Of a stretch of DNA of 64,000 nt, positions 27,001 through 30,000 are shown piece after piece. The DNA comes from Ignavibacteria bacterium (GTDB taxonomy: Bacteria > Bacteroidota > Ignavibacteria > UBA10030 > SZUA-254), in the NCBI GenBank assembly GCA_016178595.1, contig JACOSY010000053.1, positions 114-64,113 on the forward strand. The letters are read 5' to 3'. How positions within the stretch are numbered: position 1 is the stretch's first letter; the number at the start of each line of letters is the position of its first letter. A program made the position numbers.

Positions 27001-30000
27001 AAACACTTCCTGGAGGATGTTTTCCGTTTCCACACGATCACGGACGATGCGCATTGCCACGCTATAGAGCAGCTTCGCATAGCGATCGTACAATTGCTCA
27101 AGAGATCGTTGATCGCGCCGGGCGATGCCACTCAGCAACGTCGTATCGGGTACTGTGTCCGGGGAAATTGACTTCATCGTTACCTGGGTTTGCCTCTGTG
27201 TGAACGTTACAACTGCAGGGATACCGCCAAGAAGTATCGTGTGGGAAGATAAAAAATCCCACCTGCAATTGCAAACGCTCCAACCAAGATCGAGAAGCCC
27301 GTGGATGAGTTGTGTCAATGTCAGAATCCCACCTCAAGCTTTGCTCGGAGGCTGAATGGCGTTCCGGGTGTAAAGTGTATTTTTCTGATTTGTTGAGGCT
27401 TGCCGTACAACTGTGGGGCGCTGGCTGATGGGATATGTTTCACAGAAAAAGCCGATCGATGATACCGATCTGGTACGCATAGAACAATCCAAAGCAAAGA
27501 CTGAGTACACCGGCGGTTACACGAACAATCGTATTCACTCGGTCATGTTTTGCCGTGAAGGAGAATGGAAGTCCGATGAGCGCGCTCATAAGGAACATCC
27601 CGCCAACCGATCCGATACCGAAGACCGCGATATACACCAGTGCAAGCACGCGCGAAGAGATTGTTGCCAGGACAACGAGCATCAGCGCCGCGCTGCCTGC
27701 CATGCCGTGCACCATCCCGACAAAGAACGGCTTTTTCCCAACCTTTGTTTTGTGGTGATGTACCGTGCCGTGCTGATGCCCGCCGGAATGCTCGTGCAGG
27801 TGTGGATGCGCGTGCGCGCGATGATCGTGTTCATGAACATGCATGTGGAAGGAAGCGCCGCGCCGGATTTTCCAGAGAACGTTGGCGCCAAGAATAATCA
27901 GCATCAGTGCGATACCGAATTCCATCGCCAGGGCGATTTTTTCCGGAATCTGAACATTGAAGGCAATGACAGCCAATCCCACGATCAGCAGCGAAGCCGT
28001 ATGGCCGAGTCCCCACAACGCGCCAACGATCGAAGAGCTCCAGAATCCTTTCCGTTCGCTGACAATCGTTGAGACGGCAATAAGATGATCGGAGTCCAAT
28101 GCATGCTTGAGACCGAGAATAAATCCAAATCCAAGAATGGACAGTGCGCCTGCGTTGATCATAGAGATTGAAAATACCGAACTTTGCAACAACCTGCCAC
28201 TCGCGAGAGTACCGAATACATCAACCCCCAATTGACCGAATGCTTGAAGCGTAATGATGACACCGGCGATGGAAATAACACCGGCACTAACGACAGGCAG
28301 CCATCGGACGAGCGGGCCGCTCGTGTTGAATCGCTCGAAGAATTTTCGTGCGTACACCATGAGAAGTCCGATGCCCGTGAGAACGCCGGCCAGTCCGATG
28401 CTGAAGGCAACAATAAGCAGGAGGCCAAAGCCGATACGTCCAAGTGCGATAGCGCTCAGGAGAACGACAATTGCCGACGGGCAGGGCAGCAAACCGCCCG
28501 ACACACCGAGTGCGAGCAAATTCTTCCATGTTACTGGCGTTCCGTCTGCTCCGGGTGGAAGGTGAGAATGCGCATGCCCGTCGTGTGAATGCACGTGATC
28601 ATGTGAGTGCGTATGCCCATCATGTGTGTGCGTGATTCCTCGAGCCAGGAGGAACCGCTTCCGCACCAATGACAATCCGATACCAGCCACAATCAGACCC
28701 GACATAAGTCCAAGCCACGGAAAAAGTTTTTCCGGCAAAATATAGTGCGAAGCAAAAAGCGCAATGAACCCCATGGCGAAGACACCGAGGGTGTGAGTGA
28801 TCGTCACTGCCAGTCCGAGAAACGCGGCGTGCTTTGCCGTACCTCTTTGCCCGACAAGATACGCGGCAACAATAGTTTTGCCATGTCCCGGTGTCAGCGC
28901 ATGACCCGCTCCGAGCATCATCGCCAGAAGAAGCGAGGCGAGCATGACTGATGTACTCAACTCTTTGGCAGAAATGAGTTCTGCAAATCCATCCTTTGTT
29001 TTTTCAACGATCGACTGGGACAATGATGATGCTGTCTCCGTGGCAGTTCCAGGAATATAGTTGACGACCGCTTCCGACACACTCAAAGGATTCGCGAGAC
29101 GATCCTGAGGATAACTGCGGAGTTCGTTCGTGATATCTTCCTGTGAAACGGTTGATTGCCTGATCTCGTCGCCGGCTACGGGCCGCACAACGATTTCCTT
29201 CCATCCCATGCAATCGTTGAAATTATGATCGGCAAGATGAAGATTAACTTCTGCGTTGTGATGAGGGAGTGCAGCTTCAAAGACCGGCGCGAGACGAATC
29301 GTTGAAAGACCTCCCTGCCCTTCCGGAAACGAGAGATCACAGCGTACAAGGACTGGAACAACTATTTGGTCATCGATCTGAAGAATAAGATTTTCGAGTA
29401 GTCTTGCGATTGTGCGATGAGCGTACTCTTCGCGCTCGTTTTCATCAATCTGCCCATCCTTATTGCGATCGATCGTTTCGCGTTCTTTGATCGACGGGAC
29501 TTCCGCCATGTCCATCACATAGACGAGTCGAATCTTGTCGCCTACAAGCTCGATACGCGTGTAGCGATTTACGCTGAAGATGCCGAGCGGATGTGCCGAA
29601 AGAAGGCCGGCCAGTATGACAATCAAAGCAATGGTAACAAGTAATGTTCTCATACGAATTTCCGATAAAACTCTTTATTGTGGGATTGATGCGTGAGTCG
29701 TTGTCATGATTACCGGCGCTCGCTCGGTGGCAAGCACATCGACAAATCCATTTTCTGCAAGCGCCTGCTGTCTGAGGTTCACCGCCTTTTCATGTTCCCC
29801 TGCTGCAGCGAGAATGATGGATGCACGGTGGTGCATCAGAGCATTCTTCGTACCGAGTTGCATGGCGCGCTCGATATACGGAAGAGCATTTGTCGTTCGA
29901 CCATTCTTATGGAGTACCCATGCGTATGTCTCCAACGCATCGATATTGTTCGGCCGTGAATCATAGTCTCTCTTTGCACGTTCGAGCGCATCCGGAAGAT

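Follow-up and report, generated by a model that had tools for sequence, protein, structure and literature searches.

The 64,000-nucleotide stretch of DNA analysed in this study, here referred to as the window, belongs to an Ignavibacteria bacterium (assembly GCA_016178595.1, contig JACOSY010000053.1, positions 114 to 64,113 of the forward strand). It contains a cluster in which two DUF4331 genes, a gene for a tetratricopeptide repeat (TPR) protein, a permease gene, a gene for an extracytoplasmic function (ECF) sigma factor and a gene for an anti-sigma factor with a ChrR-type cupin domain follow each other on the same strand. The permease is the subject of the present analysis. Its open reading frame (ORF) of 737 residues encodes, in this order, a signal peptide, a periplasmic domain with a predicted N-terminal histidine (N-domain), an RcnA-like NicO unit (unit A), a linker and a UreH-like NicO unit (unit B) (Table 1). 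The permease was found to be a fusion of two genes that are adjacent and translationally coupled elsewhere, and together with the DUF4331 and TPR proteins it may form a relay that captures nickel- or cobalt-type ions in the cell envelope and imports them.

The original prediction held that one polypeptide joins two different permeases of the NicO superfamily, each with a histidine-rich loop, behind a periplasmic domain of about 230 residues. The ORF, the domain scans and the homologs all bear this out. Translation of the ORF placed the signatures HALTPGHGK and HALDSDH as well as both histidine-rich loops where they had been read, and the periplasmic domain spans residues 21-231, that is about 210 residues after the signal peptide. 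In Pfam, the full-length permease matched NicO (PF03824) in three stretches and DsbD_2 weakly. When the protein was also scanned as three separate pieces, each half by itself exceeded the NicO gathering threshold of 27.7 bits, unit A (residues 221-478) with 60 bits (E 3.2e-16) and unit B (residues 479-737) with 33.1 bits (E 4.9e-8), and the first 231 residues matched no family.

It was considered whether two genes had merely been joined by a sequencing or assembly error, such as a lost stop codon or a frameshift. The units are indeed encoded separately in 16 related loci, and in five of these they lie in the same frame with a single stop codon between them. However, five of 16 equals the chance level of one in three, and the homologs have a continuous linker of 20-30 residues that varies in length. 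Moreover, the protein is 100% identical in two independent metagenome-assembled genome records at NCBI (MBI1805021.1 and MBI3364037.1), and the full 737-residue call is also present in Logan assemblies. The best 120 of 7537 database matches are proteins of 589-843 residues from Ignavibacteria, Latescibacteria and Acidobacteriota that show 42-80% identity to the permease. Nearly all of them are full-length fusions with a query coverage of 94-100%; coverage is lower for P0001, P0013 and P0081, at least two of which are start-truncated calls. The probability of an artefact is therefore practically nil, and a frameshift or missed stop codon was rejected.

The origin of the fusion can be read from the genomic distribution of its parts. 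A genome scan gave at least 590 species-level loci (individual loci are designated by L numbers), and the best 80 were classified with custom hidden Markov models (HMMs). Units A and B are fused in 17 of these 80 loci, unit A is immediately followed by a separate unit B gene in 16, unit A occurs without unit B in 42, and 5 were undecided at contig ends. At the split junctions, unit B has a real Met start a few codons past the stop codon of unit A, or the two genes share an ATGA-type overlap, whereas the fused genes carry the uninterrupted linker instead. The N-domain was found in 2164 representative clusters (50% identity), and among its best 150 representatives it is combined with a single unit A in 101 and with an additional unit B in only 2-3. 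Fused genes occur repeatedly in Ignavibacteria, Acidobacteriota, Latescibacteria and some Cyanobacteria, and unfused neighbours are found in Actinomycetota and elsewhere; the fusion is thus less unusual than had been supposed. These observations show that the permease arose, as a Rosetta-stone fusion, from neighbouring genes that are coupled in translation. We therefore argue that units A and B act together.

The two halves did not arise by simple internal duplication either. Units A and B share 26% identity in BLASTP (E 4e-10) and 24% in hhalign (probability 96.5%). Many standalone proteins of about 235-245 residues are 65-82% identical to unit B, and unit A occurs without unit B in most lineages. 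Since each unit has closer relatives elsewhere than in the other half, a simple duplication was discarded. The view that two different families are joined holds in part: both halves belong to the same Pfam family, NicO, but they represent distinct subfamilies. A repeat of 3+3 helices inside either unit was not detectable with hhalign (probability <3%), and no sequence homology to any solved structure was found for the whole permease, the N-domain or DUF4331.

The best NCBIfam match of unit A was RcnA (NF007454) with 114-115 bits (E 6.6e-33), which does not reach the cut-off of 195 bits. By this measure, unit A appears to be related to RcnA without being a member of the RcnA subfamily. Like RcnA, it has six transmembrane helices, a HAxxPGHGK-type motif in the first helix (TM1), a cytoplasmic histidine-rich loop between TM3 and TM4, and a PC-containing TM4; the signal peptide, the periplasmic domain and the second unit of the permease described here are lacking in RcnA. 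Enterobacterial RcnA encoded on plasmids aligned to residues 370-475 only, with about 35% identity. The RcnA-like label thus stands, but the term 'efflux-type' is too strong for a sub-threshold match. The DsbD_2 (PF13386) score of 30.4 bits, compared to a cut-off of 24.9 bits, reflects distant superfamily similarity. DsbD and CcdA thiol-disulfide transporters have conserved cysteines in both TM1 and TM4. Unit A does not fit this pattern, as it has a single conserved cysteine (C391 in TM4) and the TM1 position holds HAxxPGHGK. The NCBI name 'sulfite exporter TauE/SafE family protein' is not supported, since no TauE match was obtained in Pfam at E-values up to 1.

The label 'HoxN-like' for unit B could not be maintained. 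Unit B matched the HoxN/NixA model TIGR00802 with 22.5 bits, far below the cut-off of 333 bits and at model positions 5-73 only, and both hydropathy and the AlphaFold2 (AF2) model give it six helices. The nickel/cobalt transporters (NiCoTs) HoxN, HupN and NixA have eight (PMC2667541). Other weak NCBIfam matches were RcnA (18 bits) and, via the histidine-rich loop, the cation diffusion facilitator (CDF) exporter DmeF. With the NiCoTs HoxN, NixA and NhlF, unit B shares HX4DH in the first helix followed by GLGHT. We refer to unit B as UreH-like instead. Some of its standalone relatives are named 'urease accessory protein UreH' by NCBI and some 'high-affinity nickel permease' by JGI, and the UreH label is taken from the source names of proteins that are 53-72% identical; no curated UreH model matched. 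UreH-type nickel permeases are standalone proteins with about six transmembrane helices, encoded beside urease, hydrogenase and SodN genes (PMC2667541). Unlike this type, unit B is fused to another permease, and no urease, hydrogenase or sodN gene lies in the cluster. The standalone relatives named UreH sit in unrelated gene contexts as well. Among six sampled contexts of standalone unit B genes, one (L005) has the gene next to DUF4331-TPR, without unit A, and the other five are unrelated; a role as a regular DUF4331-TPR partner was therefore rejected for standalone unit B. We regard unit B as an autonomous permease type that was recruited by the DUF4331-TPR module.

Hydropathy and the positive-inside rule predict a cleavable signal peptide (residues 1-20), a periplasmic segment (residues 21-231) and 6+6 transmembrane helices, and the secondary structure of the AF2 model agrees with this topology. 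Units A and B share the same orientation, with both ends outside, and the histidine-rich loops are predicted to be cytoplasmic. The helix breaks in the AF2 model coincide exactly with HALTPGHGK, GGLLPCPSA and HALDSDH, and in the model these motifs are placed as would be expected for mid-membrane ion sites. In an alignment of 41 fused homologs, in which conservation was scored, the transport motifs were all invariant. The histidine-rich loops were retained with a median of 12 histidines per loop (6-45 with a median of 12 in unit A, 10-16 in unit B).

Table 1. Features of the permease and its gene neighbourhood. Coordinates are those of the window unless a locus number is given; residues are those of the permease.
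Feature	Coordinates	Strand	Basis and remarks
Whole permease ORF, 737 residues	27440..29653	(-)	uninterrupted; ATG start; stop 27440-27442
Signal peptide MRTLLVTIALIVILAGLLSA, residues 1-20	29594..29653	(-)	hydropathy; predicted cleavage directly before His21
Periplasmic beta-sandwich domain, residues 21-231	28961..29593	(-)	no Pfam/NCBIfam family; anglerase-like
Predicted mature N-terminus HPLGIFSVN	29567..29593	(-)	predicted (mono-)histidine-brace-type metal ligand
EF-hand-like loop DRNKDGQIDENE, D-x-N-x-D-G-x-I-x-x-x-E, residues 62-73	29435..29470	(-)	helical insert of the N-domain; weak EF-hand matches
Unit A, RcnA-like NicO with six transmembrane helices, residues 232-478	28220..28960	(-)	PF03824 60 bits; NF007454 below cut-off
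Unit A TM1 signature HALTPGHGK, residues 251-259	28877..28903	(-)	H251, P255, G256, H257, G258, K259 invariant; helix break
Unit A cytoplasmic His loop HTHDGHTHSHDHVHSHDGHAHSH, residues 342-364, 12 His	28562..28630	(-)	translation and topology
Unit A TM4 motif GGLLPCPSA	28472..28498	(-)	P390, C391, P392, S393, A394 invariant; helix break
Periplasmic linker, residues 479-498	28160..28219	(-)	site of stop codon and new start in split loci; predicted local distance difference test score (pLDDT) low at 489-498
Unit B, UreH-like NicO with six transmembrane helices, residues 499-737	27443..28159	(-)	PF03824 33.1 bits; standalone relatives 65-82% identical
Unit B TM1 signature HALDSDH (HX4DH), residues 517-523	28085..28105	(-)	H517, A518, D522, H523 invariant; helix break
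Unit B TM2 motif GLGHT	27998..28012	(-)	G548, G550, H551, T552 invariant
Unit B cytoplasmic His loop HMHVHEHDHRAHAHPHLHEHSGGHQHGTVHHH, residues 603-634, 16 His	27752..27847	(-)	translation
Unit B TM4 motif HGMAGS	27692..27709	(-)	H649, G650, A652, G653, S654 invariant
DUF4331 no. 1 with type IX secretion system (T9SS) sorting domain	33586..35838	(-)	PF14224 E 7e-119; likely start near 35760
DUF4331 no. 2 with T9SS C-terminal sorting domain	31108..33501	(-)	PF14224 E 3.5e-117, Por_Secre_tail; likely start near 33294
TPR protein with N-terminal membrane anchor	29675..31102	(-)	Pfam TPR; likely start M32 (31009); stops 21 nt upstream of permease start
ECF sigma factor, SigK-like by NCBIfam	26578..27318	(-)	likely start M48 (27177); immediately downstream of permease
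Anti-sigma factor, zinc-finger-type HLLQGCDEC and ChrR cupin	26000..26581	(-)	PF12973 E 3.9e-20; 4-nt overlap with sigma gene
CbiMQO operon	L082 7208-9881	(-)	in L036, L038, L048 and L063 just downstream of permease

The resemblance of unit A to an exporter and of unit B to importers had been taken to raise a question of transport direction. One answer would be a homeostatic valve in a single polypeptide, in which unit A carries a metal out of the cell and unit B brings the same metal in. This idea draws on subfamily resemblances only, of unit A to RcnA and of unit B to HX4DH importers, and such a resemblance within a superfamily does not set the direction of transport. In addition, a protein that imported and exported at the same time would run a futile cycle. 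DUF4331-TPR is accompanied by unit A alone in most genomes and by unit B alone in L005, so the units look interchangeable or additive, and we consider the valve highly improbable. A paradox of efflux plus uptake is not supported, in view of the capture domain tethered to unit A and of the fact that either unit alone can partner DUF4331-TPR. Since A alone, B alone or both serve the same DUF4331-TPR pair, the two units should transport in the same direction. On the import reading, units A and B would act together, probably as a pseudo-heterodimer.

A link to metal capture is suggested by the N-domain. In 115 of the top 120 homologs, HP[LM]G comes right after a signal peptide whose last residue is small. 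All 41 fused homologs share H21, P22, L23, G24, F26 and N29 without exception, and the corresponding H1, P2, G4 and F6 of the mature N-terminus are invariant in 31 diverse loci. The N-domain showed no match to a Pfam or NCBIfam family, apart from weak matches to its EF-hand-like loop. This loop, which may be a structural Ca2+ site, was picked up weakly in 8 of the 31 family members, and its E73 is at least 90% conserved. Modelled alone with AF2, the N-domain is confidently predicted as a beta-sandwich whose strands 2 and 3 are separated by inserted helices (pLDDT 84.5, predicted TM-score (pTM) 0.80). Much of this domain is missing from public annotation, as the two NCBI records start at Met149, past the signal peptide and the greater part of the N-domain (29210-29653).

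The top match in the PDB for the models of both the N-domain and the full-length protein was 9gce (E 3.1e-5), a Cu-bound structure of Ang-1, which is a domain of a HupE/UreJ-2 protein. Anglerases are beta-sandwich domains with an N-terminal histidine (mono-histidine brace) that are tethered to a metal permease, and they have been proposed to swing out and seize an ion, which they then pass on to the permease for uptake (Franco Cairo et al., Nat Commun 2025, PMC12537917). As in Ang-1 and Ang-2, an invariant histidine directly follows the (predicted) signal peptide, in 41/41 fused homologs and 31/31 diverse loci. The N-domain as modelled may also share with the Ang proteins a periplasmic beta-sandwich that has helices placed between its strands 2 and 3 and is connected by a flexible linker to a metal permease of the LysE superfamily. 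Unlike in the Ang proteins, the permease here is an RcnA-like NicO unit and not HupE/UreJ-2, no HupE_UreJ (PF13795) match was found, and a second permease unit is fused. Differences from Ang-1 are also seen in the size of the N-domain with its EF-hand-like loop, in the gene context (DUF4331-TPR here, DUF4198 and others there) and in the host phyla. Judging from the models, the N-domain appears to be anglerase-like without being a member of the anglerase family, and the resemblance seems confined to architecture and fold. A literature search revealed no follow-up publication that links anglerases to NicO.

Other envelope metal systems show more distant parallels. CopC-CopD and YcnJ, with YcnI, import copper and have a periplasmic domain with an N-terminal histidine fused or adjacent to a permease. 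The design logic of such a domain combined with a membrane permease is shared, but CopC, CopD and DUF1775 are unrelated, copper-specific families to which no homology was detected. The periplasmic zinc-binding proteins ZrgA and PA4063, which ranked below 9gce among the PDB matches, resemble the N-domain weakly in fold (TM-score 0.40-0.42, with the target as reference for normalisation) and are likewise accessory proteins of periplasmic metal trafficking. Unlike the N-domain, they are free-standing, Zur-regulated partners of ATP-binding cassette importers, lack the N-terminal histidine brace and have no sequence similarity to it.

Of the 60 genome loci with at least 3.2 kb of upstream sequence, 53 contain both a DUF4331 and a TPR gene, and the TPR gene lies directly upstream of the permease gene in most loci. 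The hosts of this module include Acidobacteriota, Chloroflexota, Cyanobacteria, Actinomycetota, Binatota and Armatimonadota. The DUF4331 proteins were surveyed in the window, in L001-L087, L091 and L092. Almost all permease-adjacent copies carry A-(S/A)-S-H-R-E-A-P directly after the signal peptide, the conserved sequence continuing with L-I-S-x-D-P-x-A-D-x-T-D, and divergent copies have A-(S/A)-D-H-G-D-A-P instead. In both DUF4331 proteins of the window, the signal peptide is followed by A|SSHREAP. Cleavage after the invariant Ala fits these patterns best, as signal peptidase disfavours Asp at position -1. The mature N-terminus would then read X-X-His and could constitute an amino-terminal Cu(II)- and Ni(II)-binding (ATCUN)-like motif, as judged from sequence; the alternative is cleavage directly before the histidine. 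A further candidate DUF4331 protein (20293-23202, minus strand) was dismissed as a 969-residue protein with DUF1028 and Invasin_D3 domains, of which the custom HMM had caught the shared T9SS tail only. DUF4331 was mentioned in no paper retrieved by the literature search.

The DUF4331 proteins seem to be displayed on the surface by whatever route the host has available, namely T9SS tails or a sortase with a C-terminal anchor. In the Streptomycetaceae plasmid L092 (CP108401.1, 2858-8758), a class F sortase gene lies between the DUF4331 and TPR genes, and the C-terminus of the DUF4331 protein consists of a hydrophobic segment followed by an Arg-rich RRRR tail, which suggests cell-wall anchoring in parallel to the T9SS tails in the window. 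Plasmid pNPUN01 of Nostoc punctiforme PCC 73102 also carries the module (NPUN_RS34965/34960/34955), and the regulator beside this cluster is a generic helix-turn-helix protein of the XRE type, which is uninformative. Both plasmid examples come from cultured hosts. A hypothetical protein of 246 residues with a PEP-CTERM-like C-terminal signal and no Pfam match is encoded after the Nostoc permease (L091, NC_010631.1, 8447-9187).

Neighbouring genes bear on the identity of the metal. A CbiM(+PDGLE)-CbiQ-CbiO operon for a nickel/cobalt importer of the energy-coupling factor type adjoins the gene for the N-domain and unit A in five loci (Table 1); the ATPase of the operon beside the permease has a histidine-rich C-terminal tail. 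Genes for LarC (Ni_insertion), GTP cyclohydrolase I and Met-tRNA synthetase lie directly upstream of DUF4331-TPR-permease in two Acidobacteria loci (L001, 1-3618; L003, 1204-5013), LarC being three genes upstream in both. HX4DH is the nickel/cobalt selectivity motif of the NiCoTs. Together with the NicO membership of both units, the HX4DH motif of unit B and these CbiMQO and LarC neighbours argue for Ni/Co as the transported metals.

Copper as the physiological substrate was weighed against this view. The architecture and the direction of transport would be the same, Cu(II) would be supplied to cuproenzymes, and the name NicO would be misleading. N-terminal histidine braces and ATCUN motifs favour Cu(II), as follows from the Irving-Williams series, and the invariant C391 in the PCP motif of unit A offers a soft ligand. 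Furthermore, Ang-1, the closest structural match, binds copper more tightly than nickel (Kd 74 nM for Cu, 220 nM for Ni), and Ang-2 has been described as Cu-binding (PMC12537917). However, the characterised members of the family of both units move Ni/Co, HX4DH and the neighbouring CbiMQO and LarC genes point to the same metals, and CopA, CopC/D, PCuAC, Sco and multicopper oxidase were not among the recurrent neighbours. Overall, we consider copper distinctly unlikely.

The commonest extra neighbour of the module, in 23 related loci, was an ECF sigma factor with a zinc-finger anti-sigma factor. The anti-sigma factor in the window matched NCBIfam anti-sigma/ChrR models below the cut-off, and its HLLQGCDEC is an Hx4CxxC variant of the zinc-binding motif. 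RskA-type membrane anti-sigma factors occur in related loci (L005), which implies that the sensor module is exchangeable. A scan of the cluster for sigma-70 promoters and terminators gave no more sites than shuffled sequence, and no informative promoter or regulator was identified for the cluster. NiCo, B12 and other riboswitches were absent from the window and from four related loci, where only tRNAs and Acido-Lenti-1 RNAs were found. Two Acido-Lenti-1 (RF01687) matches lie on opposite strands between the fused permease and catalase genes in L001 (10385-10544). In the window, tRNA genes at 25313-25387 and 23842-23913 (both plus strand) flank the asparaginase gene downstream and mark the cluster boundary.

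It is conceivable that the permease works outwards. It would then pump Ni/Co (or Cu) out of the cytoplasm, either for detoxification or to load DUF4331 with metal in the periplasm before T9SS export or sortase display. The DUF4331 proteins would be metalloenzymes or metal stores with an N-terminal histidine site, served by the TPR protein and the N-domain as holding chaperone and metal hand-over site. Such export would fit the best named match of unit A, the Ni/Co exporter RcnA, and the cytoplasmic histidine-rich loops, which are typical of RcnA and CDF exporters and on one of which the weak DmeF match lies. Tandem DUF4331 genes with secretion tails resemble cargo more than a single binding protein, and a CbiMQO importer next door could equally indicate a balancing exporter. 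The recurrence of ECF sigma/anti-sigma pairs points in the same direction, since such a pair controls Ni/Co resistance in the CnrYXH paradigm. On the other hand, the RcnA match falls far short of the family cut-off, and plasmid-borne relatives of the permease were not seen within recognisable metal-resistance islands. In CopC-CopD and YcnJ, an outward-facing tethered N-terminal-His domain is linked to uptake. Domains of this kind have so far been tied to uptake permeases in the Ang-HupE/UreJ-2 proteins (PMC12537917), and the UreH/HX4DH relatives of unit B are regarded as importers (PMC2667541). We therefore consider export rather unlikely.

Our preferred reading is that the permease and DUF4331-TPR constitute a capture-and-import relay of the envelope for Ni/Co-type ions; on the present data the chances for this direction and metal class are about even. 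In its fuller form, to which we assign a probability of roughly 0.4, this reading takes the DUF4331-TPR-(N-terminal-His domain + NicO units) module as an undescribed envelope metal relay, and possibly as a third class of anglerase-permease, in which a hetero-dimeric permease of two different NicO subfamilies would receive Ni(II)/Co(II) or Cu(II). DUF4331 proteins on the cell surface (T9SS tails here, a sortase neighbour in the Streptomycetaceae plasmid) or in the periplasm would bind Ni(II)/Co(II), and possibly Cu(II), at their N-terminal X-X-His motif, with the membrane-anchored periplasmic TPR protein serving as a scaffold. The tethered N-terminal-His domain would then 'angle' the ion and hand it over to the mouths of both permease units. 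From there, the ion would pass the conserved helix-break sites, for which unit A offers His/His/His/Cys and unit B His/Asp/His/His/His, and would be received by the cytoplasmic histidine-rich loops. Import is favoured by the outward-facing capture domain with its surface-displayed partner, by the finding that either unit serves the same DUF4331-TPR pair, and by the UreH-type proteins being regarded as secondary nickel importers (PMC2667541).

Several points weigh against this relay. At the level of structure, the full-length AF2 model has a pTM of 0.41 and does not fix the packing of units A and B or the docking of the N-domain. The signal peptide cleavage sites are predicted, the match of the N-domain to 9gce is weak (TM-score 0.32-0.38), and the N-domain profile did not match 9gce among PDB sequences at E-values up to 10. 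At the level of function, the nearest named relative of unit A is an exporter, and the affinity of N-terminal histidines and ATCUN motifs for Cu(II) is no lower than that for Ni(II). Control by an ECF sigma/anti-sigma pair belongs more typically to stress and resistance responses than to metal-starvation regulons. Neither a NikR/Fur-type regulator nor a NiCo/B12 riboswitch was found, and no gene for a Ni-dependent enzyme was found among the ORFs scanned in about 11.7-42 kb of the window.

What is new in these findings is a conserved and apparently undescribed module built from known kinds of components, NicO-superfamily permeases and an anglerase-like domain, on a scale of at least 590 species-level loci and, when proteins are clustered at 50% identity, about 2,160 clusters. 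Two corrections to annotation follow, as the TauE/SafE name is unsupported and the public start codon is too late by 148 residues. The covalent fusion also offers a natural heterodimer for studying how six-helix units of the LysE superfamily cooperate. The module is found in abundant and poorly studied hosts of soil and sediment phyla, such as Acidobacteriota, Chloroflexota, Gaiellales/Thermoleophilia, Cyanobacteria and Ignavibacteria, which obtain trace Ni, Co or Cu for hydrogenases, urease, B12 or cuproenzymes. If the proposed relay is true, it would provide a first function for DUF4331 and a role for the uncurated N-terminal-His domain, and it would widen the 'anglerase' idea of 2025 from HupE/UreJ-2 to the NicO family.

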